Source: Candidatus Omnitrophota bacterium (GTDB taxonomy: Bacteria > Omnitrophota > Gorgyraeia > JABMRG01 > JAFGKX01). From it: a DNA stretch of 64,000 bases. The stretch covers positions 3,098 through 67,097 of the forward strand of contig JAZDPX010000023.1 in NCBI GenBank assembly GCA_043797125.1. Reading direction: 5' to 3'. How positions within the stretch are numbered: the stretch's first letter is position 1; each line of letters opens with the position of its first letter. The position numbers were made by a program, and so were the translations under genes. The notes beneath the pieces were generated by a model, which saw only the letters and a program-made list of their open reading frames with translations, did no database searches and was not told the origin of the DNA. This document shows, in pieces, positions 5,554 to 61,149 of the stretch.

Positions 5554-5556
5554 AAT

Positions 5557-25708: not shown

Positions 25709-26679
25709 AGACAATAACTTACGGCCAGGCAATAAATGAAGCATTATATGAGGAAATGCAAAGAGACAGTGCAGTTGTCCTTTTGGGCGAGGATATTACG
25801 ATTTACGGTGGGGCATTCGGCGTTACTAAGGACCTATGGAAGATTTTTGGAAAAGATAGAGTTATAAATACCCCAATATCTGAAAATAGTTTCGTCGGCG
25901 CAGCCACAGGAATGGCGATGATGGGGTTGCGCCCCGTAGTTGAGATTATGTTTATGGATTTTATAACATTAGCGTGCGATCAAATCATCAACCAAGCTGC
26001 AAAATTACCCTATCTTTATGCCGGTCAAGTAAGCGTACCGATGGTCATACGTACGCCAGCAGGTGCAGGCAGAGGCTATGGCGCTAGCCACTCGCAAAGC
26101 TTAGAGCGCCTATTTATGGGGATACCAGGCATAAAAATAGTCTCTCCTTATACGCCTTACGAAGCAAAGGGGCTTTTAAAGTCCGCGATAAGGTCTGATA
26201 GCCTGATTATTTTCGTCGAACATAAATTATTGTATTCAAGACAGGGGCAAGTGCCTGAAACAGAATGTCTTTTAGAGATTGAGAAGGCCCAGGTTTTAAA
26301 AGAAGGCAAAGACGTTACGCTTATTTCTTATTCAAAGATGCTTGATTGCTGTCTGGAAGCGGCAGATGCGTTGTCAGGCGATGTAGACCTGGAGATTATT
26401 AATTTGCGTAGTTTGCGGCCCATAGATATCGATACTATAGCAAAATCCGTTAAGAAGACAGGGCGCGTTGTAATTGTTGAGGAAGGCCATAAGGCGGGCG
26501 GGGTAGGTTCTGAAATTTGCAGCCAGATTGCCGAAAGCTGCCTTGAATATTTGAATGGGAGAATAGTTAGAGTAGCATCCGAGGAAACGCCTATACCCTC
26601 TTCGAGGGTCCTTGAGGATGCAATATTGCCGAATAGAGACAAAATCATCGATGCCGTGAAAAAAACTTTTGTTTGGTAG
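25705..26679 (+). CDS. 2-oxoacid dehydrogenase E1 beta-subunit homolog
   Basis: MDFITLACDQIINQAAKLPYLYAG and a C-terminal transketolase-C-like domain. ATGA overlap with the alpha subunit. Confidence 0.75.
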   Translation: MKTITYGQAINEALYEEMQRDSAVVLLGEDITIYGGAFGVTKDLWKIFGKDRVINTPISENSFVGAATGMAMMGLRPVVEIMFMDFITLACDQIINQAAKLPYLYAGQVSVPMVIRTPAGAGRGYGASHSQSLERLFMGIPGIKIVSPYTPYEAKGLLKSAIRSDSLIIFVEHKLLYSRQGQVPETECLLEIEKAQVLKEGKDVTLISYSKMLDCCLEAADALSGDVDLEIINLRSLRPIDIDTIAKSVKKTGRVVIVEEGHKAGGVGSEICSQIAESCLEYLNGRIVRVASEETPIPSSRVLEDAILPNRDKIIDAVKKTFVW

Positions 26680-35290: not shown

Positions 35291-35803
35291 TTATTGCTGT
35301 TGTTCTTGCTGAGTTTCTTGCTGTTCTTGCTGTCTTTTAAAACCGCCATCCAGGTTACTATTATAAGTTCCTTCCATAAAAACTGAAGGTGAAACAAACC
35401 CTATATCCTCGGTAGCGGGCGGCGTTACGCTGGTTAAACCATCCTGCGACTTATTTCTATATCTATATTCACCGGTAGGGGTTTTTTGCAAATTGCCGGT
35501 TGCTATATTGTCTGCGTTATAGAACGTATAGGTGTTTTTAGCTTTATCCTGTTTTAAAGCCCCAAGCTTATTGCCTTCATTATCATAGTATTCATAATCC
35601 CCGCTGTAGGTCTTCTTGGAGTAGCCGGTCTTATTGCCGTTTGCATCAAAATAGTCATAGCCGCCAAGCTCATTTTTCTTGGTATTGCTCATTTGGCCAT
35701 AATCTGCCTGCTGATAATACTGGGCAAATACAGGTGCCTCGTGCACGAATATCATGCATGCCAATATGGTCAATAATATAATACATAGTGTTATTTTTCT
35801 CAT
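35291..35803 (-). CDS. secreted repeat protein, hypothetical
   Basis: N-terminal signal peptide, three Y-x-Y-x-D-x-x-G-N-K-x-G repeats, and a Q/E-rich C-terminal tail. Convergent with the GGDEF gene. Confidence 0.45.
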   Translation of the reverse strand: MRKITLCIILLTILACMIFVHEAPVFAQYYQQADYGQMSNTKKNELGGYDYFDANGNKTGYSKKTYSGDYEYYDNEGNKLGALKQDKAKNTYTFYNADNIATGNLQKTPTGEYRYRNKSQDGLTSVTPPATEDIGFVSPSVFMEGTYNSNLDGGFKRQQEQQETQQEQQQ

Positions 35804-35899
35804 ACTATAATGTTACCATATAAGCCGCGCAAAGTAAAGAGGCCTGTATTTACTTCTTGATAAATCCGTATTTATTGGTTATTATATAGAAGATAAATA

Positions 35900-35960
35900 A
35901 GCACAGATTACACTGATTTTTAATAGATTACACAGATTAAAAAATATATGTAATCACATC
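35900..35960. promoter_or_regulatory. putative operator / regulatory repeats (GATTACAC direct repeats plus inverted GTAATC)
   Basis: ACAGATTACAC at ~35903, AGATTACAC at ~35925 and an inverted TGTAATCAC at ~35949, in the divergent intergenic region just upstream of the AAAGGAG SD and ATG at 35976. Confidence 0.3.
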
Positions 35961-35975: not shown

Positions 35976-36257
35976 ATGCCAAAAGATGTTATTTTAAAGA
36001 AAAATCCGGATATTGTAACCCGCACCATAGATGATGAGACGATACTTTTGCCTATTTATAAGAGCTCGGATGAAATAAACTGCATATATACACTAAATGA
36101 ATCAGCCTCAAAAGTATGGGATCTAATAGACGGAAAGCGCACATTGTCGGCGATTAAAAAGGAAATTGTGGAAAAATTTGACACCACAACCAAAGAAGTT
36201 GATAAGCAAATAAGTCTTTTGCTGAAAGATCTAAGGCAGATAAAGGCATTAGAGTAA
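35976..36257 (+). CDS. PqqD-family peptide chaperone (RiPP recognition element, RRE)
   Basis: 93-aa protein with the PqqD-like pattern (IVTRTIDDETILLP...ASKVWDLIDGKRTLSAIKKEIVEKFD). AAAGGAG SD upstream. Confidence 0.6.
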   Translation: MPKDVILKKNPDIVTRTIDDETILLPIYKSSDEINCIYTLNESASKVWDLIDGKRTLSAIKKEIVEKFDTTTKEVDKQISLLLKDLRQIKALE

Positions 36258-36319
36258 CAGATAGCCTTAAAAGGGCTTTATGGACTATTTTATAAAATGC
36301 ACACGCCGTGAGGTGATGC

Positions 36320-36772
36320 TTGCTTTTCGTAAAAAAAATTCTTGCGAAAATTATTTTATTCCTGCAATCATACGCCCCGTATCGTAAATTAACAAAATTT
36401 ATTTTATATAGAAATATAACCTTCAGGGTAACTGTAGAGGCTGATGGCTATAAGGCCGTGGCTATGAAGAACAATCGGGCTATCGCCAAGGTATTTTTAG
36501 GTTTCAGCGATAAGTATTCTCCGGAAGGGTGGTGGTTGCAAGCTTTAGGGGTAAAGGTTTTATATCGGCGCTTAGGTATCGGCAGGCAGTTGGTTATAAG
36601 ATGCATCGATTTTATTAAAGCGCAGAAGGGGGCATGCATTGTTTTCAGCAATGTGCATAAAGATAATATTGCTTCAATGAAATTATTTAGCGGATTAAAT
36701 TTTAAAATAATGCCGTGGCCGCAGGAATCATTATCCAAAACGCAAAACAGATACGCATATATAATAAAATAA
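36320..36772 (+). CDS. GNAT-family N-acetyltransferase
   Basis: LYRRLGIGRQLV (acetyl-CoA binding motif A-like) and the GNAT fold order. The track start is TTG, so the true start is uncertain. Confidence 0.5.
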   Translation: MLFVKKILAKIILFLQSYAPYRKLTKFILYRNITFRVTVEADGYKAVAMKNNRAIAKVFLGFSDKYSPEGWWLQALGVKVLYRRLGIGRQLVIRCIDFIKAQKGACIVFSNVHKDNIASMKLFSGLNFKIMPWPQESLSKTQNRYAYIIK

Positions 36773-37819
36773 ATGGCAATAAAAAAACAAGGTTATGCAG
36801 TTTTTTCCAACAGAATTCACCGGCTGGCAAACGAAGAACGTTTTCCGTTGCGGGCGATGTTTGAATTGACTTACCGCTGTAATTTTAAATGCATCCATTG
36901 CTATAATACTGAAACGCAGAAGAAGACAAAGCCCCAGAATGAGTTAACTACCAGGCAAGTATTCGATATTCTTACGCAGCTTAAAAGAATAGGATGTCTT
37001 TACTTAGGCTTTACGGGTGGCGAGATATTTTTGCGCCATGATATACTGGATATTATTATATATGCGCGTAAATTAGGCTTTGAGCTTATTCTTTTGACCA
37101 ACGGCTCGCTTATAAATAGAAAGGTAGCCGACAGGTTAAGTAAGCTTAGATTGAATAAAATAGATATAACCGTGCATGCTATGAATGATGGTATTTTTGA
37201 TAAGATTACACAAATACCCGGTTCTGCTAAAAAGGTATTTCGGGCAATAAAGTTGCTTTACAAAAGAAATATTCCGTTGGGTCTTAAAAGTTGCGGAATG
37301 CGCGAAAACAAAGATGAAGTTGTCAAAATACAGAAATTTGCCAGCGGTATAAAAGCCATTTACCGATTAAATACAGAGTTATTAGCCTGCAATGACCGCG
37401 GCAAGACGCCGTTTGAACATCGTCTTTCTGCCGTAGAACTTTATTCTCTATACAAGGATTACTATCCAGAAGGTTTTGCTTTTAGGGCCGTAAAAAAAGA
37501 AAAATCAGGGCATATTTTTCCCTGCGGGGTAGGCAAAACAGATTTGACCATTAACCCTTTCGGAGGATTACAGTTATGTTTGGCAATAGATTATCCAAAA
37601 TATGATATATTGAAAGGCGGATTAGCCTTAGGCTGGCAAAAGATAAAAGAATTTGTTGATGAGCTCAAAGCGCCAGCAGGCTGGGTATGTGCCAAATGTG
37701 ATTTGGTTCCTTTTTGCAGGCGGTGTCCGGCCAAAGGATATTTGGAAGACGGAAATTTTTTTAGCTGTAATCATTATAGCCGCCAGCAAGCAGAATTCAT
37801 CAAGGAAATGCAGGCATAG
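36773..37819 (+). CDS. radical SAM / SPASM-domain peptide-modifying enzyme (paralog 1 of 3)
   Basis: FELTYRCNFKCIHCYN (CxxxCxxC) and a C-terminal Cys cluster CAKCDLVPFCRRCPAKGY (SPASM/twitch auxiliary cluster). Confidence 0.7.
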   Translation: MAIKKQGYAVFSNRIHRLANEERFPLRAMFELTYRCNFKCIHCYNTETQKKTKPQNELTTRQVFDILTQLKRIGCLYLGFTGGEIFLRHDILDIIIYARKLGFELILLTNGSLINRKVADRLSKLRLNKIDITVHAMNDGIFDKITQIPGSAKKVFRAIKLLYKRNIPLGLKSCGMRENKDEVVKIQKFASGIKAIYRLNTELLACNDRGKTPFEHRLSAVELYSLYKDYYPEGFAFRAVKKEKSGHIFPCGVGKTDLTINPFGGLQLCLAIDYPKYDILKGGLALGWQKIKEFVDELKAPAGWVCAKCDLVPFCRRCPAKGYLEDGNFFSCNHYSRQQAEFIKEMQA

Positions 37820-37851
37820 CAGTAGTAAAACTAAAAAACGGAGGTGGTATT

Positions 37852-38064
37852 ATGGCAAATAAAAAGAAATTTAAGCCGCAAGTTACGCGGGTTAAGCTTA
37901 ACCCTGAACAGGCAGTGTTGGGATGCAGCTGTTATGATATTGGGATATACCATATTGACCATTTAGAAACACGAAGTTTTAATGCGTGCATCCCTGAAGC
38001 AAAAGAGTATGATACGCGCGCTACTCATTGCGTAGGAGACCCTGCGGGGATTCTTACAAGCTAA
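37852..38064 (+). CDS. candidate RiPP precursor peptide (70 aa, 4 Cys, C-terminal Ser)
   Basis: Strong SD GGAGGTGG 5 nt upstream of ATG. Lys-rich leader-like N-terminus MANKKKFKPQVTRVKLNPEQAVLG. Core CSCYDIGIYHIDHLETRSFNACIPEAKEYDTRATHCVGDPAGILTS. Sits between two SPASM radical SAM genes. Confidence 0.5.
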   Translation: MANKKKFKPQVTRVKLNPEQAVLGCSCYDIGIYHIDHLETRSFNACIPEAKEYDTRATHCVGDPAGILTS

Positions 38065-38065
38065 A

Positions 38066-39142
38066 TTGATGAAGGAGATAGACAAATTTAAATTTTATAG
38101 CCATCTTAGAAGCAGGAGTAGCCACCAGCCCCTAATTGGGCAACTGGAGCTTACGTATAGGTGTGGGCTTAATTGTATTCATTGCTATTGCAAAGGAAGT
38201 GAAGATAAAGAAAAGGAATTGGCTACTCGAGACTGGAAGCAAATATTGGATATGCTGCAGAAAGAAGGCTGTGTTTGGCTTAATCTTACCGGAGGAGATC
38301 CTTTAATTCGGGATGACTTTCTGGAAATTTACTCTTATGCCAAAGCTAAATGTTTTATTGTTTCAATTTTCAGCAGCGGATATGGTTTTAACTGTGAAAC
38401 TATCGAATATCTGGTCAAAATACCGCCCCATTCCATAGAGATTACATTAAACGGCATTACTCAAAGCACTTATGAATCCATAACACAGACAAAAGGTTCT
38501 TTTTTCGCGGCTATGCGCAACATAAGGTTATTGGCCTCAAAAAACTTACCGCTTATTATAAAAACGAACTGCATAAAGCAAAACCGGCATGAATTAGTGA
38601 GGATAAAACATTTCACTGAAGAGCTTTTAGGCAAACCATACAATAAGCATTTTTTTAGATATGATCATACTATACATCCAAGACTAAACGGAGACAAAAC
38701 ACCGTTAAGTTACAGGCTTTCTTTTGAAGAAATAGCCGAAACGAAAAAAGAGGATAAGGATATATGGCAGGAGTATCACAAGGCGTTAAAAGCCCGCACT
38801 CACAGTTTACCAAGAGAGGCAGATTTTCTTTACCAGTGCAATTCCTGGAAGCGGCAATTTATTATAGACCCTTACGGTAAGCTAAGACTATGTACCTTGT
38901 CAAAAAAACATAATATCGATTTAAAAATCGTATCCTTTAGGGAGGGATTTTATAATATACTTCCCGGGGTTTTAGAAGAGAGGTTTAAAACACCCTCCAA
39001 ATGCCGCTTATGCCATTTAAGGTCTTTATGCTATAATTGCCCTGCCAGAGCGTATCTTGAAACAGGTAACGAAGAGTTGCCGGTGGAATATTTTTGTCAA
39101 TTCGCGGAACAAACATACAGATACGAAAAGAATGAATTATAG
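38066..39142 (+). CDS. radical SAM / SPASM-domain peptide-modifying enzyme (paralog 2 of 3)
   Basis: LELTYRCGLNCIHCY and C-terminal CRLCHLRSLCYNCPARAY. The track start is TTG 38066; the ATG is at 38069. Confidence 0.7.
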   Translation: MMKEIDKFKFYSHLRSRSSHQPLIGQLELTYRCGLNCIHCYCKGSEDKEKELATRDWKQILDMLQKEGCVWLNLTGGDPLIRDDFLEIYSYAKAKCFIVSIFSSGYGFNCETIEYLVKIPPHSIEITLNGITQSTYESITQTKGSFFAAMRNIRLLASKNLPLIIKTNCIKQNRHELVRIKHFTEELLGKPYNKHFFRYDHTIHPRLNGDKTPLSYRLSFEEIAETKKEDKDIWQEYHKALKARTHSLPREADFLYQCNSWKRQFIIDPYGKLRLCTLSKKHNIDLKIVSFREGFYNILPGVLEERFKTPSKCRLCHLRSLCYNCPARAYLETGNEELPVEYFCQFAEQTYRYEKNEL

Positions 39143-40055
39143 GATTAGATTAAAAATAGCCGGCGTCTTAATTCAGATGGAAAGCAAGCACCCGTTGCAG
39201 AAGTTTAATCTTAAGCAGCAGAGACAAAGAAGACATGGACGCTTCCATAATTTTTTCTATCATGGTAGGCAAAAGCCGCAAGTCAGGATTAAGATAGAAA
39301 TAAAAGATAAATTACCAAAAATAAGCAAAAAGGCAAAAGAGCTTTTTCTTACTAAAAATTTTGACGGAATAGGAACGAATTGGCGCCTTCTAACATACAA
39401 GGGCGGTTATATTTACAAAAATTTTGTTAAGGCCAAAAAACAGATTATGACGATGGACAAAAATTTTAAAAGCATAACCGTTTTTCTTTTGCCAAAAAAC
39501 AAACAACGCGTGTGGGATATGGCGGACATCGTATATGATTTTTTGCAAATTTTGCTAATAAATTATTTTGCGCGTTATAAATTAGGCATTTTTGCGCATG
39601 CCATGGGAGTGAAAGATGTTAATAAAAACGGCTTTCTTTTTTTAGGAGAGTCTGGCGCAGGCAAAAGCACAATGGCCAGAATATGGCACAAGCATACAAA
39701 GGCGCAGATTTTAAACGATGATCGCGTAATTATACGGCGGGAAAACAACGGCAATTTTTTTATTTATGGCACGCCGTGGCATGGAAATTTTAGCGATTAT
39801 CTTGGCGCGCGCATGGAAAAAGCCAGGCTGGTCAAATTATTTTTTATATATCATAACTCCCATAACGAAGCAAAGCGCATTGTTCAGAAGGCGGCATTTA
39901 GATTTTTTTATCCTGCAATATTTCCCACATTTTGGGATAAGGAATATTTGGAAAACATCGCCTCATTATCCTGTGATTTGTTGGATAGGGTGCCTTGTTT
40001 TCGTTTAGGATTTGTTAATGATAAAAATATAATTGAATTTGTAAGAAAGAAATGA
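39132..40055 (+). CDS. HPr-kinase-related P-loop kinase (lasso-peptide-kinase-like)
   Basis: Walker A FLGESGAGKST and the HprK C-terminal-domain-like fold order. The start is moved to the in-frame ATG 39132 (or 39177) because the track ORF 39057 start overlaps the upstream gene. Confidence 0.5.
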   Translation: MNYRIRLKIAGVLIQMESKHPLQKFNLKQQRQRRHGRFHNFFYHGRQKPQVRIKIEIKDKLPKISKKAKELFLTKNFDGIGTNWRLLTYKGGYIYKNFVKAKKQIMTMDKNFKSITVFLLPKNKQRVWDMADIVYDFLQILLINYFARYKLGIFAHAMGVKDVNKNGFLFLGESGAGKSTMARIWHKHTKAQILNDDRVIIRRENNGNFFIYGTPWHGNFSDYLGARMEKARLVKLFFIYHNSHNEAKRIVQKAAFRFFYPAIFPTFWDKEYLENIASLSCDLLDRVPCFRLGFVNDKNIIEFVRKK

Positions 40056-41116
40056 GAGAAATCCCTTATAAAGATTTTAGCTTTACCACACATAAGAAGA
40101 ACTGGCAAAGAGACGCATTAAATGTTTGTAAATTAGAATTAACTTTTAAATGCGGCTTACATTGCCGGCATTGCTATTCGGATTGCTATAATCGTGATTC
40201 TTGTATAAAAGAAGAGTTAAAAACGCAGGATGTAAAATATACCCTAGATAAGCTTTATGCAAGCGGTATAATATGGCTATGTTTTACCGGCGGCGATCCG
40301 TTAACAAGGAACGATTTTTTAGATATTTACACTTATGCTAAAACTAAAGGCTTTATCATCTCAATATTCAGTAATGGTTATTCCATGACGGAGACAATAG
40401 CCGCTTATTTGCAAAAAACTCCCCCGTTTTCATTTGAAATTACCTTAAACGCAGTAACACGGAAAAGATATGAAGAGATCTCACAAGTCAAAGGTTCCTT
40501 TGGCAGGACAATGGCTGGCATAGATATGTTGATAGAAAAAAAATTACCTCTTAAGATAAAAACTCAGATTACCCAACAAAACTTTGACGAATTAAAACAA
40601 ATTGAACATTTTATAATTGGCTTAAGGCTGAAACCCACGATGAATTTTGCGCTGTGCCCGCGTTTAAACGGCGATTTAGAGCCTACACGACTTAGAATAC
40701 CACCCGAACAAGTAAGGAGTTTAAAGGTGCGGGAAAATACCTCAAGTGAATATTGTAAGAAAAACCAGAATGGAAATAGCAAACCAAAGCACACAGGCCT
40801 TTTTCTCTGCGCTATAGACGGGGATGGAATACATATTGACCCCTACGGCAATGCCTTTCCCTGCAATTTAATAAGAAAACCTAATTTTAATTTGCTCAAA
40901 ACAAACATTGAGTTAGTGCGTGCTGAGCTGCTGTCACTGGCGCGCGGTAAAAAATTCACTACAAGTTCAGGATGCAGGTTCTGCAATTTAAGGCAGAATT
41001 GCTTAAATTGCCCCGGCAATTCATATTTAGAGACAGGTGACCAGGAAAGGCCGGTTGATTATTATTGCAAGTTGGCGAAAGAGGTCTTGCATGTTAACAA
41101 AATGGACGCGGTTTAA
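40052..41116 (+). CDS. radical SAM / SPASM-domain peptide-modifying enzyme (paralog 3 of 3)
   Basis: LELTFKCGLHCRHCY and C-terminal CRFCNLRQNCLNCPGNSY. Confidence 0.7.
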   Translation: MREIPYKDFSFTTHKKNWQRDALNVCKLELTFKCGLHCRHCYSDCYNRDSCIKEELKTQDVKYTLDKLYASGIIWLCFTGGDPLTRNDFLDIYTYAKTKGFIISIFSNGYSMTETIAAYLQKTPPFSFEITLNAVTRKRYEEISQVKGSFGRTMAGIDMLIEKKLPLKIKTQITQQNFDELKQIEHFIIGLRLKPTMNFALCPRLNGDLEPTRLRIPPEQVRSLKVRENTSSEYCKKNQNGNSKPKHTGLFLCAIDGDGIHIDPYGNAFPCNLIRKPNFNLLKTNIELVRAELLSLARGKKFTTSSGCRFCNLRQNCLNCPGNSYLETGDQERPVDYYCKLAKEVLHVNKMDAV

Positions 41117-42785
41117 TCATTATCTTTATCCGCATTGGAAACGCCTGGCGTTAACCATCTTTTTGGGTTTGGTCAGTATGTTTCTAGCTTTAATTAATCC
41201 ATATCTAATCAAATTAATGATTGATAAGGCTTATCCTCAGCACAACTTGAAATTATTTTTACTTTTTGCTTTAACAGGAGGCATTATTTTCGCTCTTATA
41301 ACGATAATCAATTCGTATAGCGGTTATCTAAACCAGCGCGTTAACTCACTTGTCAAATTCAGGCTGACAAATGATATCTTCCGGTGTTTACAGCAAAAGG
41401 ATTTGGCCTTTTTCAGGGATAAATCCGCAGCCGAACATCTTTACAAAGTAAACAGCGATGTTGGCATGGTGAGCAATTTTATTTGCGTATATATGCCGCA
41501 ACTGATTATTTTAGTGCCCAGGAGTTTTTTTATTTTAGCAATTGTATTTTTTCTTAATTGGAAGATAGCTTTATTATCGGTTTTGATTGTTCCGTTATGC
41601 TGTATTAACCCATATTTCTTTAAAAGATGGCTTAGGGACGCGCAGAAGCGGCTGGTAGATAAAGCGCAGAAGGCATTTTTTAGCCTTCATGAAGCATTCA
41701 GCCATATTTTATTGACCAAGGTTTTCCACAAAGAGAAGCAATGTGCGGAAAAGTTAGAGAAAGAAATAGAAAAAGTTATGTACTTTGAATGCAGAAATTC
41801 AAGATTATTAGCCATAAGCGGCCTTTCTAATTCTTTATTGAATAAAACCTGTAGCGGCATAATTGTGATATATTGCGGATACCAGGTAATAAGCGGCAAT
41901 ATGACCTTGGGGGATGTGTCGGCAGTAATGATATACCTTATGCAATTTTTCGCCCTGGCGATTGCATTAGCCAGGTTTTCTGACTCATTGGCTATAAATT
42001 CAGTTTCACAGAATCGTTTAGATGAGATTTTTCAGGCACAGCCGCTTATAAAAGATTATCCGGGCGCTAAGGACTATTCTATTTTACGCCCCAGCATCGA
42101 ATTCAAGGATTTAACTTTCGGATACGCAGAAAAGAAAGTGATCCTGCGTGGAATAGGTTTTTACATAGAGCCCTGCCAGAAAATAGCCTTAACAGGGCCA
42201 TCAGGCTGTGGGAAAACCACACTGCTTAACTTGCTTTTGAGGCTTTACGAACCTTGGCGTGGAGAAATTTTTATTGATGGTCATGAACTCAAGGATTTTA
42301 GGATAGGGTCATTGCGTGAGCAAACAGGCATAGCGTTGCAGGAACCTTTTTTGTGGGATAGCACCGTTAAAGATAATATTCTTTATGGAAACGAGAATGC
42401 AACCATAGATGAGCTTATTGAAGCCTCAAAGATTGCCCAGGCGCATGACTTTATTTTAGGTTTGCCACAGCAGTATGATACGCAGATCGGTGAGATGGCA
42501 TGTAAGATTTCGGAGGGCCAGAAACAGCGTATTGCCATAGCGCGTGCTGTAATTAAAAAGCCAAAAATATTGATTTTAGATGAAGCAATGGCGTCTATTG
42601 ATTCCGAGACCGAAGGTAAAATTGTGGAAAATCTGAAAAACAACTTAAAAAATTCTACAATTATTGTGATTTCGCATAATTCCGCTACTTTGCGAAAGAT
42701 GGATTCGGTATATTTTTTTAAAAATCCATCAGAAATAATACCTTGCCATGACGAAAAACTTCAGGAAAAATATATTATTAATTAA
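41091..42785 (+). CDS. ABC transporter, fused permease/ATP-binding protein (peptide exporter type, no N-terminal C39 peptidase domain)
   Basis: Six N-terminal TM helices, then Walker A GPSGCGKTT, signature ISEGQKQRIAIARA and Walker B ILILDEA. The start is moved to ATG 41091. Confidence 0.75.
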   Translation: MLTKWTRFNHYLYPHWKRLALTIFLGLVSMFLALINPYLIKLMIDKAYPQHNLKLFLLFALTGGIIFALITIINSYSGYLNQRVNSLVKFRLTNDIFRCLQQKDLAFFRDKSAAEHLYKVNSDVGMVSNFICVYMPQLIILVPRSFFILAIVFFLNWKIALLSVLIVPLCCINPYFFKRWLRDAQKRLVDKAQKAFFSLHEAFSHILLTKVFHKEKQCAEKLEKEIEKVMYFECRNSRLLAISGLSNSLLNKTCSGIIVIYCGYQVISGNMTLGDVSAVMIYLMQFFALAIALARFSDSLAINSVSQNRLDEIFQAQPLIKDYPGAKDYSILRPSIEFKDLTFGYAEKKVILRGIGFYIEPCQKIALTGPSGCGKTTLLNLLLRLYEPWRGEIFIDGHELKDFRIGSLREQTGIALQEPFLWDSTVKDNILYGNENATIDELIEASKIAQAHDFILGLPQQYDTQIGEMACKISEGQKQRIAIARAVIKKPKILILDEAMASIDSETEGKIVENLKNNLKNSTIIVISHNSATLRKMDSVYFFKNPSEIIPCHDEKLQEKYIIN

Positions 42786-44169
42786 TCCTAGGGTAATAAG
42801 ATACAGAAGCTATCCTTCGGTAGCATTAGCCAGCATAGGGTCTTATCTGCGTAGTAATGGTTGTAATGTAAGAATAGTTGATAGCAATTTTACAAATGAA
42901 GACCCATACCGCGTTTTGGCAAAGACAAACGGAGAATATTTAGTCGGTATAAGTTGCGAATCTAAAAATATCGAAGAGGCCCTTAAGATAGCGGTATACG
43001 CCAAAGAAAAACAAAATATTGTTGTAATGGGGGGGTTGCATGTTTCCCTGGCGAAAGAGAAGATACTGGACAATATTTGCGTGGATTACGGAATATATGG
43101 AGACGGCGAATTATCACTCCTTAAATTGATTGAGGCTCTGGATGAAGGCCTTCCTTTGGAAGATGTGCCTGGATTAATATACAAATTCACCGGGCAGATA
43201 AAGGTTAATGAAAAGGGACAGGCGGCAAATTTAGATGAGTTGCCCTTTCCCGATTATAAGCTGGCAGGAATTAACAGAATATCCCAATATCCGCTTATAA
43301 CGAGCAGGGATTGCCCTTATAAATGCACTTATTGCACTGTCGGGGCGATTTCGCACGGAAGTTGGCGTATACGCAGCCCAAAAAACGTAATAGCTGAATT
43401 GAAATACGCAAAAGAAACTTACAATATTAAGAGTTTCATTATATTTGATGAAAACTTTTCTCATGATATGGAGCGGGTTAAGATGTTTTGTCTGATGCTG
43501 CTTAAAGAAAATCTTATTTTGCCTTGGGCCGTTATAGAGGGTATGCGCGCCGATAAAGTTGATAGGGAGTTTCTTAGGCTGCTAAAAGTCTCAGGGTGTA
43601 AGGATATTATTTACGGGGTTGAAAGCGCGGATGAGAAGGTTTTTGAGAATATATCGAAAGGGGGAAAATTTTTAACGATAGAAAAAGCGATTGATTTGGC
43701 AAAAGACGAGGGCCTTGAGGTGGGAGCCTATTTTGTTATAGGGCTGCCGGGAGCGACTTTTGAATCGGAAATGAAATCTATTGAATTCGCAACAAAACAC
43801 AATCTTAGCCCTTGCGTATTCTGGATGGCAATACCATATTACAATACGCAGCTTTATGAATGGGTCCTGAAAAACGCCAAGCTTTTAAGAGAGCCTACGG
43901 GTGAGAACCTGGTAAATTCCCTGAGCACAGAGCCGTTTTTTGAAACAGAAATCTTCCCAAAGGATAAAGTGAAAAAGGCATTTGTCATGGCTCAATTAAG
44001 TATCGGAAACTATAGTTTTTATGAAGACCACGACGGCAAAAAAATCTCAAAAATCTTTAGGTTTTTACTTGTGTGTCTGTATATGTTGAGATATGACTTA
44101 TGCAGTTTGTGGAGTTTTCTGGCCTCTGGTAGGCGGCTGAAACAAGAAAGTTTTGCATATGGTAAATAA
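42748..44169 (+). CDS. B12-binding domain radical SAM enzyme
   Basis: ITSRDCPYKCTYCTV (CxxxCxxC) after an N-terminal B12-binding-like domain. Third such enzyme in the window. Confidence 0.7.
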   Translation: MTKNFRKNILLINPRVIRYRSYPSVALASIGSYLRSNGCNVRIVDSNFTNEDPYRVLAKTNGEYLVGISCESKNIEEALKIAVYAKEKQNIVVMGGLHVSLAKEKILDNICVDYGIYGDGELSLLKLIEALDEGLPLEDVPGLIYKFTGQIKVNEKGQAANLDELPFPDYKLAGINRISQYPLITSRDCPYKCTYCTVGAISHGSWRIRSPKNVIAELKYAKETYNIKSFIIFDENFSHDMERVKMFCLMLLKENLILPWAVIEGMRADKVDREFLRLLKVSGCKDIIYGVESADEKVFENISKGGKFLTIEKAIDLAKDEGLEVGAYFVIGLPGATFESEMKSIEFATKHNLSPCVFWMAIPYYNTQLYEWVLKNAKLLREPTGENLVNSLSTEPFFETEIFPKDKVKKAFVMAQLSIGNYSFYEDHDGKKISKIFRFLLVCLYMLRYDLCSLWSFLASGRRLKQESFAYGK

Positions 44170-45103
44170 AATAAAAAATGAAAAAATAAATAGGGTGAAC
44201 CGATGGTCTGATTTAAGAGCGCATGAGATTATGATAAGGGATAAGCTAAGGACCCTTTCCTACAAAAAGGCCATAGAAGATAATATTAAATCCGGTGATG
44301 CGGTTTTGGATGTCGGCTGCGGCACCGGCATATTATCTTTTTTTGCGGCAAAAAAAGGATGCAAAAAAGTTTATGCAATAGATAAATCCGCCATTATAGA
44401 TGATGCCAAAAAGACAGCGCAGCTAAATAATCTCCAAGATTGCGTTGAATTTATTAAAATAGATATACTAAAATTTAAACCAAAAGAGAAGATGGATGTA
44501 ATACTGCATGACCAGATAGGCAACTTTGTATGGGATGAAGGCCTTATTTCTAAAATAACTTATGCAAGAGACAGGTTTCTTAGTCAGGGCGGCACGATGA
44601 TTCCTTATAAAATAGATTTATGCTTTGTGCCCGTGGATTATGAATCGGCTTTTGAGAAATCCATTTTGTTTTGGTCTAAAAAGAAATACGCGTTAAATTT
44701 CAATAATCTTGCCAAGAAAATGCTTATACAGCAGATTTACAATTCGCTCCATCCGTATATAATTAAGCTTAAAAATAAGAAAGTTTTTTTGTGTAAAGAA
44801 AAGCTAATTTATAGTATCGATTTAAAAAAAGAAAAACGCCTGCCTGAAAAATTGACAGCAAATTTTAACTTAAAAAAAGGCTCAAGGCTTACTGGTATGT
44901 GCATATATTTTAAGGTACACCTGGATAAAAAAAATATTTTCTCTACGGCGCCTAGAGCTGTAAACAGCCACTGGGGCCAGATATTTTTGCCGTCTTTTGA
45001 GCAAAAGCAAATAAAGCAGGATTCTGTTTTAAATTTCACATTATTTCCCCAAATTTCTCCTAAAAAATGGAAGTTCGAATTTAAGATAATAAAAAAGACA
45101 TAA
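44153..45103 (+). CDS. SAM-dependent methyltransferase, protein-arginine-methyltransferase (PRMT)-like
   Basis: VLDVGCGTGILSFFAAKKG motif I, the post-I acidic motif and a C-terminal beta-barrel-like region, as in the PRMT fold. Confidence 0.45.
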   Translation: MHMVNKIKNEKINRVNRWSDLRAHEIMIRDKLRTLSYKKAIEDNIKSGDAVLDVGCGTGILSFFAAKKGCKKVYAIDKSAIIDDAKKTAQLNNLQDCVEFIKIDILKFKPKEKMDVILHDQIGNFVWDEGLISKITYARDRFLSQGGTMIPYKIDLCFVPVDYESAFEKSILFWSKKKYALNFNNLAKKMLIQQIYNSLHPYIIKLKNKKVFLCKEKLIYSIDLKKEKRLPEKLTANFNLKKGSRLTGMCIYFKVHLDKKNIFSTAPRAVNSHWGQIFLPSFEQKQIKQDSVLNFTLFPQISPKKWKFEFKIIKKT

Positions 45104-45114
45104 GAAAACTTGCC

Positions 45115-46743
45115 TTGGGAAAAACCCTTAAAGAAACAGATACAAGAATACACAGAGATATGCTAATTTCATCCATAGCTAAAAAGGGCAGCGTGTGGGT
45201 GCAGGCATATGGAGCTAGTATGTCCCCGTTAATAAAAGAAGGTGACTGGCTGGAAATTTCCTCAATTTCCTATACTAAATTGAAACCAGGAGACGTAGTA
45301 GCAATAAAGCCCGAGGGTTATCAGGATAAATCAATAGTGCATAGGCTCATTAAAATAATAAATAGCCCAAATTCGTTGCTCATAAAGGGCGATAATCAGA
45401 TTTTAACCAATTCCCCTGAACCTGTAAGCGCAGATTTTCTGATCGGAAAAATAATAGCCATAAAACGCTCAAGCAAATGCATAAGAGTGGATAATTTTGT
45501 GTGGGATATCATTGGTTATATTGTAGTGAAACTTTCTACAGCTTCCCCGGGATTTGCAAGGATATTTTTATTAACAATAAGTCTTTTTTCTGCGCCAAAA
45601 GAGATTCCATCAAAAATACTCAAACGAATTAAAAAAAATTGTTTTCGCAGTGGACAAATTCCTAAAAAAGAGGATTTGTTCATCCTGCAGCATTGTAGCC
45701 CTGCCCCAGAGGTAAACTCTCATGCGCCGAAAGCCCTTGATTGGGAATATATATATCAAAAAAGCATGAAAACCCAATCAGTTGCCCTGTTATACCGCAA
45801 CTTAAAGCTAAAAGGCATTGAGAATATGATTCCCGGCAGCATGCTTAGGCGTTTAAAAGATATATACATCACAAACTCACTGCGCAATTTAAGTCTTTTA
45901 GATGAATTTGAGAAGATTATGGCAGTTATTAATGAACGAAAAATAAAAGCAATGCCAATAAAGGGGTTTTCCCTGCTTCTCGATATATATGAAGATGCAG
46001 GCGCGCGCGGCATTACAGATTTGGATTTATTCATAGATAGAAAAGATATGGATGCCGTATCCGGGATATTTCAGGGACTTGGGTATAGGAGACTACAGGA
46101 ACATGAAAAAATAAGTTACTATAGCCATCATCATATATTGACTTCAAAAGAAAAAGCAATACGCGTCGTAGAGATACACACAAGGCTTTTCCCGTGGTAT
46201 GTTGAGGAATTTTTTATTAAGATAGAAAGTTACGATTTTTTAGCAAGGGCACAAAAGATAAAATGGCGCAATATCGAAATATGCAAAATGGAGAAAACAG
46301 ATGAATTTATTTTCTCTCTTTTGAGTTATTATGCAAATAATTTTGCAGGCCTTAAATACCTTTTGGATGCAGATGCGATATTGAAGAAAGCCATAGATTT
46401 TGACTGGCAAGGATTTCTAAAAAGAATAAAAGAATACGATATAATGACCCAAATTTCTTATGGTATTTTCTTTTGCAAAAAATACTTAAACAGCCCTATC
46501 CCCTCAAATATTATCGATGAAATTTCATTTACTTCAGGAAAGACGTATTTCGTTCTAAATCGGGTATTTCCTATAACGCTTATGCATAAACAATTCCCGA
46601 AATGGCAAAGCCGCATTATGAGGTTTAAGGAAATGAACAATATCAGAGACAGAAGCTCCTTGATAAAAGAAGCTATTGTATGGCATTTGTATAAAAAGTT
46701 TGGAATTTTTTCTAATTATGTAACTCAAAAAAATTATAGTTAG
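45115..46743 (+). CDS. S24/S26-family serine peptidase domain fused to a nucleotidyltransferase-like (PF14907-like) domain
   Basis: N-terminal GASMSPLIKEGDWL...VHRL...KGDN (Ser nucleophile GxSM and Lys of signal-peptidase/LexA-type peptidases). C-terminal ITDLDLFIDRKDMDAVSGIFQGLGY nucleotidyltransferase-like region. The track start is TTG; alternative ATG at 45160. Confidence 0.45.
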   Translation: MGKTLKETDTRIHRDMLISSIAKKGSVWVQAYGASMSPLIKEGDWLEISSISYTKLKPGDVVAIKPEGYQDKSIVHRLIKIINSPNSLLIKGDNQILTNSPEPVSADFLIGKIIAIKRSSKCIRVDNFVWDIIGYIVVKLSTASPGFARIFLLTISLFSAPKEIPSKILKRIKKNCFRSGQIPKKEDLFILQHCSPAPEVNSHAPKALDWEYIYQKSMKTQSVALLYRNLKLKGIENMIPGSMLRRLKDIYITNSLRNLSLLDEFEKIMAVINERKIKAMPIKGFSLLLDIYEDAGARGITDLDLFIDRKDMDAVSGIFQGLGYRRLQEHEKISYYSHHHILTSKEKAIRVVEIHTRLFPWYVEEFFIKIESYDFLARAQKIKWRNIEICKMEKTDEFIFSLLSYYANNFAGLKYLLDADAILKKAIDFDWQGFLKRIKEYDIMTQISYGIFFCKKYLNSPIPSNIIDEISFTSGKTYFVLNRVFPITLMHKQFPKWQSRIMRFKEMNNIRDRSSLIKEAIVWHLYKKFGIFSNYVTQKNYS

Positions 46744-46797: not shown

Positions 46798-46828
46798 TTG
46801 ACTTTATATAATTTTGTATGTTAATATA
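46798..46828 (+). promoter_or_regulatory. possible sigma70-type promoter (TTGACT-N18-TAATAT) for the export operon
   Basis: In the AT-rich 140-nt intergenic region before the Wzc-like gene. Weak. Confidence 0.3.
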
Positions 46829-46885
46829 TTAAATTATGTAATAATATTTCTAAGACTTACTAGTTTTAAAAAAAAGGATATAAAA

Positions 46886-49030
46886 ATGGTGGATAATATT
46901 GCAGATAAAACTTTAAGAAAGCCTCCTATTGAAGAGGAGGCTTTCGTCGATCTTTTTTTTAAGTATATTTACATTATATTAAAATACAAAATATTAATAA
47001 TTCTAGCTGTGTTGTTGGTCGCCCCTATTGCTTTTAGGACATTAAAGGCGAGGGAGCCGGTATTTCAGCCTAAATATAAGACAACGGCAAGGATAAGGGT
47101 GATGGCTGAGGGAATAGTGCAAAGAAGCGGCGATACAGCCAACACAATATATGCTGAAGACATGGCGCTAAGAAGGAAAGTGATGGATTTGACCAATTTA
47201 ATGAAGAGCTCTGTTGTGCTTGAAAATGCCGTTGAAAAAACATTTAATTTGACAGATAAGGATCAGATTGTATCATACGCTAGTGGATTTCAGGATCCTA
47301 AATCAGAGGTGTTTATTGTGACGGAGGAAATGAATTATATAAATATGTCAATTATTGAGTCGGATCCTAAAGTAGTCGTGGATTTTATTAATGCGGTGAT
47401 TGAATTTACCAGGGAAGAACTGTTAAACAGCAAAAGGCTTGTAGCAAAAGAAGCGCTTGAATCTTTGGAAAAGCAGCTAAAAGAAGCTCGTTACGATTTA
47501 GAGCAGGCTAAACTGCAATTAACTAAATTTATCGTTGAAAATAAAGTATTGTCCGAAGCCATGGAAGTGGAGGAGGGTAAGATCAAGGGCACATTGACTG
47601 AAGATGTTGATAAACTAGCCTTGCAACTGGTTGACATAAGGTCTCAGAGAGCCGGGATAGAAGAGTTTATAGCAGACATAAAAGATACCAGAGATACAAG
47701 AGGTGAAGTTGAAGCCTTCAGGCTGGTAATGCGTAAACATCCCGAACTGGTAAATGCAGATTTGCTTAACGATTTATCTAAACAGGAGGCGGAACTAAAA
47801 GAACTTTTACTTGTAAATAAAGAGGCGCATCCCGATGTTGTAAAAGCGGCGGAGAGATTAGAACAGGCAAAGCGTTTGATACAAAATGAAATAAACGCAG
47901 CCACAGATTCGTTAGTGAAGAATAACGACACATTAAACATGCGCGAAGAGAAAATGAGCAGTTTAATAGAAAAAGGTTTAAGCGATGTAATGATAGAGTA
48001 TTCGCACCTGCAAAGAAATGTGCGAATTAAAGAAAATTTAGCCGATAAGGTTGTGGATTCTTTGCAGGAACTGAGCCTGGCAACCAAATTAATTAGTACA
48101 GGCACATTTACAGTGGTAGACCCCCCGCTATTACCTGCAGCGCCCTTTAACCTTTATGAAAAGCAAAGAACCACTGTAAATTTTTTGTTATTTTCGCTAA
48201 TTTTTGGATTGGCGGCAGGTATAGGGCTGGCTGCTGTGATTGAACAGCTTAGCACAACAGTAAGAGATTTACAGGAAATAGAGAAAAGCTTAGATTATTC
48301 TATTTTAGGCGAGATACCGCTTTATAAAGCTAGCCATAAAGGAAGTAAATATTCGCTGCCGCTAAAAGAAGACCCTAACTGCATTGTAAGCGAAGCATTC
48401 AGAGGATTGCGCACAAATATAAAATTTCGTTGCGCTGATAAGGAAATCAAGACTATTTTAATAACCAGCCTGGTTCCTAAAGAAGGTAAAACCTTTATCT
48501 CTTCTAGTTTAGCAGTGGCCTTTGCGCAAACAGGTAAGGATGTGCTAATCATTGATTGCGACCTAAGAAAATCTACTTTGCATAAGTATTACGGAGTTGA
48601 AAATAAAAACGGCATAACACAGTTAGTTCAGGGTGAAGAAGGCATTCAGCCGGTTAATGCAGGGATACCGCACCTGGATATTTTACCCGCAGGCAAGCAC
48701 GCTCAAAACCCTGCAGAGCTTTTATCCTCCGATGCATTTGATAAGATTTTGAAAGAGCTAAAACAAAAATACGATCTTATCATTATTGATTCTGCCCCTT
48801 TATTTGCAGTAACTGACTCTACAATTTTAATCAAAAAATCGGACATAGCGATATTAGCAATAAGGGCTGATGTGACGCCTAAAAAAGCAATTCGCAGGTT
48901 AGCAAGGTTTTCCGAGGATATATATTCAAAAATATTGGGCGTGGTGTTTAATGGCATAGGAAGCCAAAAAAGCAGATATGGTTCGTATTACTACTACAAA
49001 TATAATTACTATGGCAAAGGCAAAGGATAA
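46886..49030 (+). CDS. polysaccharide co-polymerase / BY-tyrosine kinase (Wzc-like, PCP-2a)
   Basis: N-terminal Wzz-like periplasmic coiled-coil domain between two TMs. C-terminal Walker A PKEGKT, Walker A'/B and the terminal Tyr cluster RYGSYYYYKYNYYGKGKG. The start is moved to ATG 46886. Confidence 0.75.
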   Translation: MVDNIADKTLRKPPIEEEAFVDLFFKYIYIILKYKILIILAVLLVAPIAFRTLKAREPVFQPKYKTTARIRVMAEGIVQRSGDTANTIYAEDMALRRKVMDLTNLMKSSVVLENAVEKTFNLTDKDQIVSYASGFQDPKSEVFIVTEEMNYINMSIIESDPKVVVDFINAVIEFTREELLNSKRLVAKEALESLEKQLKEARYDLEQAKLQLTKFIVENKVLSEAMEVEEGKIKGTLTEDVDKLALQLVDIRSQRAGIEEFIADIKDTRDTRGEVEAFRLVMRKHPELVNADLLNDLSKQEAELKELLLVNKEAHPDVVKAAERLEQAKRLIQNEINAATDSLVKNNDTLNMREEKMSSLIEKGLSDVMIEYSHLQRNVRIKENLADKVVDSLQELSLATKLISTGTFTVVDPPLLPAAPFNLYEKQRTTVNFLLFSLIFGLAAGIGLAAVIEQLSTTVRDLQEIEKSLDYSILGEIPLYKASHKGSKYSLPLKEDPNCIVSEAFRGLRTNIKFRCADKEIKTILITSLVPKEGKTFISSSLAVAFAQTGKDVLIIDCDLRKSTLHKYYGVENKNGITQLVQGEEGIQPVNAGIPHLDILPAGKHAQNPAELLSSDAFDKILKELKQKYDLIIIDSAPLFAVTDSTILIKKSDIAILAIRADVTPKKAIRRLARFSEDIYSKILGVVFNGIGSQKSRYGSYYYYKYNYYGKGKG

Positions 49031-49910
49031 AATCGGCGCAAGGCGCCATTTTCTAAAATTGGCGCCGGGTGTAATTTTATTATTTTTTTTATGCGGCTGC
49101 CAAACCATTCCTGTGAAGAAAGTTTCGGATAATTCCAATACCCCTGTCTTGCCGCAAGAACAAGGGTATATCAACGAAGCGGAAATAGTCTATGCTGCTG
49201 ATATACAGGATAGAGGATGGGAACTTAAAGATTATAGCATGGAGACAGGAGATGTTTTAAACATTTCAGTCTGGCAGGTTGAAGATTTGCAAAAGACCGT
49301 AGTCGTGAGGCCCGATGGGAAAATATCTTTTCCTCTGATAGGTGACATCCAGGCTAAAGACGTTACTATTGAAAACTTGAGGCTTGCGCTAGAGGAAAAA
49401 TTAGGCAAGTATATAAGAGTGCCGCAGGTTTCTGTTATAATCGAGACCTTTGGAGGCAAAAGAGCCATAGTAATAGATGAAGCAGGAGGAGGCGGCATAA
49501 TAAGATTTGCAGAACCAATTAGAGCCATAGAAGCTTTGGCAATGGCCGGAGGTTATAGCTCCGACGTGAATCTGCATAAGATTTATATTATAAGAGGAGG
49601 CATGGAAAAGGGTAAGCCATCGCAGATAATTATTGCTGATGCGCATAAGATATTCAGGGAAGGTGATATGAGCCAAAATATATTAATTCAATCAGATGAT
49701 ATTATATTTTTAGCTAGAGGATGGCTTTCCACTCTTACTAATTTTGTAGGGCAGATGGATGCTCTTAAAAATCAGATAGGCAATGTTGTAACTCAGGCAA
49801 ATTATTATAGAAACATGGATAATGTAATGCCTTGGAATTATAAGACGACAGACGTAGACCTTCGAAAAGGCGACTTTGTCAAGGGTGACTGGGATACAGG
49901 CACGCAATAG
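49011..49910 (+). CDS. polysaccharide export outer-membrane lipoprotein (Wza-like)
   Basis: Lipobox LLFFLCGC. Poly_export domain GDVLNISVWQ...PDGKISFPLIGDIQAKDVT plus an SLBB-like region. Confidence 0.7.
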   Translation: MAKAKDKIGARRHFLKLAPGVILLFFLCGCQTIPVKKVSDNSNTPVLPQEQGYINEAEIVYAADIQDRGWELKDYSMETGDVLNISVWQVEDLQKTVVVRPDGKISFPLIGDIQAKDVTIENLRLALEEKLGKYIRVPQVSVIIETFGGKRAIVIDEAGGGGIIRFAEPIRAIEALAMAGGYSSDVNLHKIYIIRGGMEKGKPSQIIIADAHKIFREGDMSQNILIQSDDIIFLARGWLSTLTNFVGQMDALKNQIGNVVTQANYYRNMDNVMPWNYKTTDVDLRKGDFVKGDWDTGTQ

Positions 49911-57680: not shown

Positions 57681-57739
57681 TGTCCCTCCAATGCTCCTGT
57701 TCGTCACATTGTCGGGACAAAATTTGCTTCGCAAATTTT
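57681..57739 (+). repeat. conserved tRNA-Ser upstream leader element, copy 2
   Basis: See copy 1. Confidence 0.6.
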
Positions 57740-61148: not shown

Positions 61149-61149
61149 T

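Follow-up and report, generated by a model that had tools for sequence, protein, structure and literature searches.

A probable ScmC-type radical SAM/SPASM peptide operon inside an exopolysaccharide locus of Candidatus Omnitrophota

The window analysed here is a stretch of 64,000 nucleotides from the metagenome-assembled genome of a Candidatus Omnitrophota bacterium (GenBank assembly GCA_043797125.1, contig JAZDPX010000023.1, positions 3,098 to 67,097 of the forward strand), and its subject is an operon of eleven plus-strand genes at window positions 35976-46743, separated by intergenic gaps of -38 to +62 nt. Judged by sequence comparison, this is a real, widespread and uncharacterised radical SAM (S-adenosylmethionine)/SPASM system of the ScmC type for a ribosomally synthesised and post-translationally modified peptide (RiPP). 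In all likelihood the operon produces a small peptide with Cys residues, modifies it and exports it. It lies within an exopolysaccharide (EPS) locus, and the large family to which it belongs is usually found beside genes for polysaccharide export. The chemistry proposed for the operon below is what we infer from its enzymes.

The operon and its genes

In the original prediction, which was made from the sequence alone, eleven co-directional genes had been called in this region. All eleven open reading frames (ORFs) were recovered on the plus strand at the coordinates first given, and every earlier domain call was reproduced by hidden Markov model scans with Pfam and NCBIfam. The gene starts could likewise be kept, except for that of the kinase-like gene, where 39132 is favoured over the earlier 39057 because the resulting length of 307 aa equals that of its homologues; an alternative start at 41091 is possible for the ABC exporter gene. 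The kinase-like protein and the small precursor ORF are deposited at NCBI as hypothetical proteins, V2A72_04305 and V2A72_04295, respectively. The genes are as follows.

35976..36257, plus strand: standalone PqqD-family peptide chaperone (RiPP recognition element, RRE), 93 aa; PF05402 E 2.7e-11
36320..36772, plus strand: GNAT acetyltransferase; PF00583 E 1.3e-8
36773..37819, plus strand: radical SAM/SPASM enzyme A; PF04055 E 1.5e-26, 94 bits
37852..38064, plus strand: predicted precursor peptide, 70 aa; leader MANKKKFKPQVTRVKLNPEQAVL, core GCSCYDIG...C...C...GILTS
38066..39142, plus strand: radical SAM/SPASM enzyme B; PF04055 E 8e-16, 59.1 bits
39132..40055, plus strand: ScmC-family HprK-like P-loop kinase, 307 aa; PF27840, Walker A and LNDDR motifs
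40052..41116, plus strand: radical SAM/SPASM enzyme C; PF04055 E 2.8e-14, 54.1 bits
41037..42785, plus strand: ABC exporter with transmembrane and nucleotide-binding domains; PF00664 ABC_membrane and PF00005 ABC_tran
42748..44169, plus strand: B12-binding (class B) radical SAM enzyme; PF02310 and PF04055, no equivalog match
44153..45103, plus strand: PRMT-like SAM-dependent methyltransferase; PF22528 PRMT_C E 4.4e-11, PF06325
45115..46743, plus strand: S24/S26 serine peptidase::PF14907 nucleotidyltransferase fusion; peptidase at about residues 1-130, transferase at residues 208-459

The precursor peptide family

Comparison across homologous loci identifies the 70-aa ORF as the substrate of the operon. 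The strong Shine-Dalgarno sequence reported earlier for this cysteine-containing ORF is GGAGGTG, 5 nt before its ATG; the predicted core has Cys at positions 2, 4, 23 and 37, and the last residue of the peptide is Ser (Ser70). A search with the window precursor as single sequence returned two proteins only, and the first relative shares its N-terminus and has an unrelated C-terminus, in a locus with the order PqqD, small ORF, radical SAM, radical SAM, ScmC, radical SAM, ABC. A six-frame scan for full-length small ORFs in 80 species-level loci, fetched through an alignment of the kinase-like protein, yielded 51 distinct copies of the precursor, and a profile of 42 precursors matched at least 939 clusters out of 5.8 billion proteins, all of them hypothetical and none with a name or a Pfam domain. 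The original prediction depended on a conserved small ORF in homologous loci, and it survives on this point because the precursor family recurs in them. The general marks of a RiPP precursor, namely a small ORF by modifying enzymes, a conserved leader, a variable core and recurrence, were all found. No Pfam or NCBIfam model was found for this precursor family or for that of the second tier of loci described below.

The 51 precursors share a near-invariant leader of 23 residues with the consensus M.RKPKF[KR]P.ITR[VI]KLNPEQAVL, and their cores, of 33-65 residues, are hypervariable and rich in Ser, Gly, Thr and Ala. The core starts with x-C-x-C in 41 and with x-C-C in 10, the third Cys is placed at about position 25 and the fourth, in most precursors, about 12 residues before the C-terminus. 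The C-terminal residue is Ser or Thr in 50/51, against a background of 17% for small ORFs of the same loci. Among the best 121 of the 939 profile matches, xCxC stands directly after the leader in 121/121 and the last residue is Ser in 107 and Thr in 14, which brings terminal Ser/Thr to 171/172 of the precursors examined. A logo over 150 cores gives [AST]-C-x-C-[YWF]-x-x-G as the start, and small residues followed by Ser or Thr as the end.

The number of precursor copies per locus varies from one to six, the six being those of L044, and no second copy was found in the window. The possibility that the 70-aa gene is a chance ORF was considered and rejected. The precursors with a C-C core start constitute a subfamily, represented by locus L044 (JAQTSA010000030.1, 177-7978) and also by L041, L042, L043 and L047. 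Its cores are shorter (33-39 aa), a single locus can hold as many as six or seven copies, in tandem or dispersed, and in these five loci no more than one or two radical SAM orthologues were detected.

Three radical SAM/SPASM enzymes in two tiers of loci

Enzymes A, B and C all score above the gathering cut-off of PF04055 Radical_SAM, which is 29.5 bits. They had been described as paralogues carrying a CxxxCxxC motif and a C-terminal Cys cluster, and this was borne out: pairwise identity among the three is 26-30%, CX3CX2C is found at residues 36 (A), 33 (B) and 34 (C), and the complete seven-Cys SPASM signature Cx12Gx4C ... Cx2Cx5Cx2C ... C is present in each, in enzyme A with Cx12Gx4C at 251, Cx2Cx5Cx2C at 306 and the last Cys at C332. 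The canonical signature for two auxiliary [4Fe-4S] clusters is Cx9-15Gx4C, Cx2Cx5Cx3C, C, and A, B and C have Cx2C instead of the final Cx3C. The Pfam SPASM model gave no match to the three enzymes at E<=0.01, the SPASM assignment being motif-based only.

By best-hit assignment A, B and C belong to three distinct orthologous groups, with median margins over the next paralogue of 136-215 bits (140 bits for enzyme A), and the neighbourhood census that had been suggested for such triple-enzyme loci placed all three together in 29 loci. Enzyme B is 46% identical to its orthologue in locus L001, and among PDB sequences it matches the thioether synthase SkfB best (1.3e-18). The census was based on the 38 tier-1 loci of at least 12 kb, and all counts are lower bounds owing to truncated contigs and the use of a single query sequence per component. 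ScmC occurs in 38/38 by construction, enzyme C in 35/38, enzyme A in 33/38, PqqD in 32/38, enzyme B in 31/38 and the ABC exporter in 27/38, and by this comparison PqqD, the three enzymes, ScmC and the exporter are the conserved core of the system. PF14907 was detected in 20/38 tier-1 loci and in 15/22 tier-2 loci; among the tier-1 loci the S24 peptidase was found in 15/38 and the B12-radical SAM enzyme in 12/38. The GNAT (2/38) and the PRMT-like methyltransferase (1/38) are rare accessories.

Tier 2 (loci L048-L083) is found in Aminicenantes, Desulfobacterota, Nitrospirota, KSB1 and others, with the gene order PqqD, one B-like radical SAM, precursor, ScmC, an optional PRMT-like methyltransferase, S24 peptidase and PF14907, and its systems often adjoin AAA_22, HD_5 and Wzc genes. 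The tier-2 precursors are an unannotated family with the pattern M..K.K.RK.YKKPQI.QVKL.IEEAVL.ACK...C...C...GS; they have three Cys and end in Ser or Thr, the ending being nearly invariantly Gly-Ser. Profile comparison with hhalign shows that the leaders of tier 1 and tier 2 are homologous (probability 97.3%, E 2.6e-11). Since the tiers are homologous and tier 2 has a single enzyme, the window carries an expanded triple-enzyme version of a broader system, and since that single enzyme is B-like, enzyme B resembles the ancestral copy.

The ScmC kinase, the transferase-peptidase fusion and the other enzymes

The name ScmC follows from the precomputed Pfam annotation PF27840 "ScmC", which is carried by an identical database protein and by nearly all of the best 120 of 525 homologues, mostly from Omnitrophota. 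The Pfam scan made here returned no PF27840 match, that Pfam version apparently being without the model. An exhaustive profile search with ScmC reached 9,571 representatives (50% identity) at E<=1e-3 and 443 at E<=1e-30. GxSGxGK (Walker A) and LNDDR are invariant in the ScmC alignment, and the protein combines a P-loop fold of the HprK/PEPCK type with Walker A and an acidic metal-binding pair. The DD pair of LNDDR corresponds to the metal site D158/D159 of PsmK, mutation of which abolishes phosphorylation of the terminal Ser (PMC6993621). The scmC gene sits between radical SAM genes whose stop and start codons overlap with its own, a position that is kept in dozens of loci.

In the fusion protein, PF14907 NTP_transf_5 scores 137.7 bits (E 6.5e-40; cut-off 31.2) and the DxD motif is present as ITDLDLF. 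The peptidase domain is of the SipW/Sec11 type (PF00717; TIGR02228 E 3.1e-11), with the motifs GASMSP, IVHRLI and KGDN. In other loci the S24 peptidase and PF14907 are encoded by separate adjacent genes. PqqD is 54% identical to its L001 orthologue and scores below all NCBIfam equivalog cut-offs, and no match to a C39 peptidase domain was obtained for the exporter, in agreement with what had been said of it. The B12-radical SAM enzyme is a probable methyltransferase. Homologues of the PRMT-like methyltransferase adjoin ScmC in L035 and L054. In the latter, a tier-2 locus of Desulfobacteraceae, the PRMT-like gene (10837-11973) lies between ScmC and the S24 peptidase and its product has a weak PqqD-like C-terminal stretch (residues 332-361, E 0.0029), which suggests an RRE-fused methyltransferase that would act on the peptide.

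Proposed pathway

PqqD-type RREs bind leaders, and the standalone PqqD would bind the leader of the precursor and present the peptide to three non-redundant radical SAM/SPASM enzymes. These would act on the conserved Cys, i.e. the C-x-C at the core start, Cys3 and Cys4. SPASM enzymes usually form thioether links on Cys-bearing precursors, and Cys-derived thioether cross-links would be the likeliest product of the radical SAM chemistry. ScmC, with its HprK fold, would then phosphorylate the side chain of the near-invariant C-terminal Ser/Thr, and the fused PF14907 nucleotidyltransferase would put a sugar or nucleotide on the phosphate, as PsmK and PsmN do for pseudomycoidin. These two steps are proposed by analogy: the terminal Ser/Thr, the DD pair of ScmC and the recurrent PF14907 closely match the pseudomycoidin scheme. 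The B12-radical SAM enzyme, the PRMT-like methyltransferase and the GNAT may add optional methyl and acetyl groups, the SipW-type peptidase domain would cleave the leader, and the ABC transporter would export the product.

Exopolysaccharide context

The eleven genes had been described as a self-contained set, and this view had to be given up because a Wzc-like tyrosine kinase gene follows 70 nt downstream and the operon is embedded in a large EPS locus. Window positions 1 to ~56,600 constitute this one locus (~56 kb), with sugar-nucleotide enzymes, GT2 and GT4 glycosyltransferases and methyltransferases, and 3' of the peptide operon with two Wzc-like kinases, Wza, an AAA_22 ATPase, an HD_5 protein, a TPR protein and Wzz. 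The Wzc-like paralogues, both tyrosine autokinases (46814-49030 and 49925-51640), stand on either side of the Poly_export gene, and the AAA_22 ATPase reaches 218.7 bits, below cut-off, with TIGR03015, which models the ATPase associated with XrtA/PEP-CTERM. Co-transcription of the operon with the Wzc/Wza export machinery, and a functional tie to it, are probable. The features surrounding the operon are listed here.

32166-33593, within the EPS locus: priming polyprenyl glycosylphosphotransferase
35291-35803, minus strand: 170-aa ORF without Pfam or NCBIfam match
35857..35955, plus strand: candidate promoter TTGATA-17-TATTAT with operator-like repeats
46814..49910, plus strand: Wzc-like tyrosine autokinase and Wza-like polysaccharide export protein; TIGR01007 173.5 bits (above cut-off), TIGR03018 and TIGR03027 partial

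Such neighbours are not restricted to the window. EPS export or priming markers were found within 10 kb in 13/35 tier-1 and 15/22 tier-2 loci of at least 12 kb, and the same EPS neighbours are seen in L001, L007, L016, L025, L039, L084 and L086 and in tier-2 loci. The module of Poly_export, Wzc-like kinase, PEP-CTERM-type AAA_22 ATPase and HD_5 recurs in Omnitrophota, Elusimicrobia, Aminicenantes and Desulfobacterota. In two of the three loci that were reached from a precursor (L084 and L086) the operon is divergent from Poly_export-Wzc-Wzy-flippase-glycosyltransferase genes, followed by PF14907, HD_5 and AAA_22, and the third has AAA_22 and HD_5 downstream. The recurrence of EPS neighbours is far above the ~1% that was estimated here, without a formal control, for a random gene near EPS markers, which argues for a functional tie of the operon to EPS production.

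The operon lies downstream of a GGDEF gene, as had been reported, with the minus-strand 170-aa ORF between that gene and pqqD. Immediately upstream of pqqD, at 35905-35955 and 3' of the promoter-like TTGATA-17-TATTAT, two direct copies of AGATTACAC[T/A]GATT stand 20 nt apart together with an inverted GTAATC arm, and these repeats may be an operator. Promoter and terminator scans of the region gave results no better than those for shuffled sequence, and because promoter-like sites are no commoner there than in such shuffled sequence the promoter and operator are a weak part of the description.

Other contents of the window were recorded as well. Outside the peptide operon, the glycosyltransferase part of the EPS locus encodes two more radical SAM proteins (1623-2933 and 29544-30932). 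One of them is B12-binding, the second such protein of the window, and has its best matches, below cut-off, to HpnJ and BchE-type models. Two gene pairs for E1 dehydrogenase alpha and beta subunits (thiamine pyrophosphate-dependent, transketolase-like) lie within the EPS locus at 4594-6600 and 23629-26679, and ahead of one pair stands a protein that has biotin/lipoyl and hexapeptide-acyltransferase domains. Such content is unusual for a polysaccharide locus, and the pairs may serve an uncommon sugar side-chain modification. A large serine recombinase ORF (57704-59257, minus strand; Resolvase, Recombinase, Zn_ribbon_recom) overlaps a tRNA-Ser(gga) (57740-57829, plus strand), and after it come genes for an EcoRI-like adenine methylase and a GmrSD/HNH endonuclease (59940-62358, plus strand). 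This region resembles an integrated element or a defence islet at the tRNA-Ser site and marks where the EPS locus ends. An Rfam scan returned tRNA only.

Comparison with known systems

The original prediction did not recognise the combination of genes as a described RiPP class. Literature searches indeed found no paper on such a system, but the combination is not wholly unrecognised, because PqqD, an HprK-like protein and radical SAM/SPASM enzymes are already catalogued together as the SynChlorMet cassette (NCBIfam TIGR04248-04251) and ScmC as PF27840. SynChlorMet (ScmC/ScmD/ScmE/ScmF = TIGR04249/04248/04250/04251) is the closest catalogued relative and likewise has a PqqD-family protein, the HprK-like ScmC and paralogous radical SAM/SPASM enzymes. 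The window proteins stay below its cut-offs (bits/cut-off: ScmC 15.3/125, ScmD 27.1/100, ScmE at most 75.4/400, ScmF at most 61.1/400), as does ScmC of tier 2 (31.7/125). Unlike SynChlorMet, the window has three radical SAM orthologues rather than two, adds an S24 peptidase, a PF14907 nucleotidyltransferase and an ABC exporter, and belongs to a system for which a candidate precursor family is identified. To our knowledge no SynChlorMet product has been described. Searches of the available literature library returned no paper on SynChlorMet, none on ScmC with radical SAM, none joining HPr kinase with radical SAM, PqqD and precursor peptides, none linking PqqD and radical SAM with EPS tyrosine kinases and none on HprK-related/PEP-CTERM; for PF14907 they returned a single, unrelated paper, and two surveys of biosynthetic gene clusters in Omnitrophota mention RiPPs generically only.

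The tailoring genes have their parallel in lasso peptide systems. HprK-family kinases phosphorylate the terminal Ser on its side chain in paeninodin (PadeK) and pseudomycoidin (PsmK), and PsmN, an uncharacterised nucleotidyltransferase, is needed for the addition of one or two hexoses to the phosphate (PMC6993621; PMC8498205). The paeninodin and pseudomycoidin systems share with the window an HprK-family kinase, a nucleotidyltransferase, a PqqD-type RRE and an ABC exporter, and their precursors, too, have Ser as the last residue. Fusions of a nucleotidyltransferase to the leader protease are recorded in lasso systems (PMC8498205) and parallel the peptidase::PF14907 fusion of the window. The link to lasso accessory enzymes that had been drawn earlier gains strength from the Ser/Thr with which nearly all of the precursors end. 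The absence of lasso B and C genes was likewise upheld, as no lasso cyclase or B2 protease domain was found in the eleven proteins and the lasso PqqD models scored 29.2/80 and 18.8/70. A lasso peptide was rejected because the Asn-synthase-like cyclase and the transglutaminase-like B2 leader protease are missing. In contrast to lasso systems, the core machinery of the window is radical SAM/SPASM and the cores are 33-65 residues long and contain Cys.

The maturases of sactipeptides and ranthipeptides (SkfB, AlbA, PapB, CteB/SCIFF) resemble the window enzymes in being radical SAM proteins with a SPASM or related auxiliary-cluster domain that act on Cys-containing leader-core precursors, and the AlbA, StsB, SkfB and PapB models gave weak matches, all far below cut-offs. 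The one pointer towards thioethers of the kinds that define these classes, from Cys S to C-alpha or to C-beta/gamma, is the closeness in sequence of enzyme B to SkfB. The differences are that the RRE of the window is a separate PqqD and not an N-terminal fusion, that three conserved non-redundant enzymes serve only 3-4 Cys in a long core with a hypervariable middle, and that a terminal-Ser kinase and transferase module is added.

EPS loci of the XrtA/PEP-CTERM type contain, by their NCBI protein names, an 'HPr-rel-A system' of PqqD and HprK-related kinase A. The window resembles them in having an HprK-like kinase and PqqD inside an EPS locus and in its neighbours, which match TIGR03015, TIGR03018 TyrKin, TIGR03027 export and TIGR03007 ChnLen, all below cut-off. 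HprK_rel_A scored only 15.6 bits on a tier-2 protein, no exosortase was found in the window, and radical SAM enzymes are central to the window system as opposed to these loci.

Discussion

Several observations weigh against the biosynthesis proposed here. The nucleotidyltransferase and the S24 peptidase went undetected in about half of the tier-1 loci, many contigs being truncated and one query sequence having been used. As the loci were collected through ScmC, the co-occurrence of ScmC and terminal Ser is subject to ascertainment bias; reverse look-ups were made from three precursors only, and 3/3 adjoin ScmC, radical SAM genes and an ABC exporter. The binomial P of 1.5e-37 for the enrichment of terminal Ser/Thr overstates the case because the precursor sequences are related and the calculation ignores it, and the leader ends without an obvious A-x-A signal-peptidase site. 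With regard to the chemistry, A, B and C are about equally near to the NCBIfam models of enzymes for heme, PQQ, mycofactocin and sactipeptides and fall far short of the cut-off in each case, and because these matches are equally distant thioether formation is the likeliest guess only. Precursors with three Cys coexist with all three enzymes, so no rule of one enzyme per Cys can be drawn. ScmC scores 16.6 bits on Hpr_kinase_C against a cut-off of 33.3 and HprK was not significant (E 0.41) in a PDB sequence-profile search; as the sequence matches to HprK are weak, the kinase assignment rests on fold and motifs.

Three other explanations were weighed against the proposed EPS-linked peptide operon. 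The biosynthesis could run as described and yield an ordinary secreted antimicrobial or signalling peptide, with the placement in an EPS locus due to shared regulation or chance insertion. Bacteriocin-like RiPPs do typically have hypervariable cores, several precursor copies in one locus and an ABC exporter of their own, and several long loci, e.g. L005, L015, L018, L021 and L022, have no EPS marker within 10 kb. This is nevertheless considered unlikely, if deserving of serious attention, as the same EPS neighbour module recurs across the four phyla named above, often immediately beside the operon or across a common divergent promoter region, far more than the ~1% estimated for a random gene, and no immunity gene is evident. 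It is more doubtful that action on the peptide is confined to the radical SAM enzymes and PqqD, with ScmC and PF14907 acting on an EPS substrate such as a sugar, a lipid carrier or Wzc. Both genes do lie among glycosyltransferase and export genes, the HprK fold is common to PEPCK, a small-molecule enzyme, PF14907 proteins are uncharacterised, and direct activity of PsmN was never shown in vitro (PMC6993621). Against this stand the location of ScmC between radical SAM genes, which has overlapping codons in the window and is kept in dozens of loci, and the terminal Ser/Thr of 171/172 precursors and likewise of the tier-2 precursors, a conservation that has no other obvious explanation and concerns the known target of HprK-type RiPP kinases (PMC6993621; PMC8498205).

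A system that matures a cofactor or a protein, after the manner of PQQ, mycofactocin or the anaerobic sulfatase maturases, and from which no peptide would be secreted, had been named at the outset as the outcome that would overturn the prediction. It is highly improbable. The PqqD, PqqE and MftC models do give matches, all with low scores far below the curated cut-offs (PqqD 35.7 against 46, PqqE at most 90.1 against 381 and MftC at most 85.7 against 265 bits), and no anaerobic sulfatase maturase family was among the matches listed in the NCBIfam scan. Cofactor precursors have an invariant core, whereas here the middle is hypervariable and only the C-x-C start and the small-residue tail are conserved; up to six precursor copies occur per locus, and an ABC exporter belongs to the conserved core. 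A PQQ or mycofactocin system was rejected because of the scores below cut-off and a hypervariable precursor middle without an invariant cofactor motif.

A bolder idea, itself rather improbable, is that ScmC-type peptides are dedicated partners of EPS machinery of the Wzx/Wzy/Wzc type rather than free antibiotics. The cross-linked peptide would carry a terminal-Ser phosphate to which the PF14907 enzyme, and perhaps also glycosyltransferases of the locus, would add sugars, and the resulting conjugate of ribosomal peptide and phosphoglycan would prime, cap or anchor the polysaccharide. If this were true, the hypervariable core would represent strain-specific surface diversity, and a class of peptide-polysaccharide hybrids would be widespread in the same four phyla.

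The operon represents what appears to be a large and entirely unannotated RiPP family, with at least 939 clusters in the precursor family and 9,571 representatives in the kinase superfamily, and it supplies candidate precursors for relatives of orphan SynChlorMet-type cassettes. Three dedicated radical SAM/SPASM enzymes would here be joined with C-terminal-Ser machinery previously known from lasso peptides only, which suggests that phosphorylation, and possibly glycosylation, of the terminal Ser is a portable tailoring module across RiPP classes. The placement beside polysaccharide export genes in several uncultivated phyla raises the question whether the modified peptides build or regulate the cell envelope or matrix.

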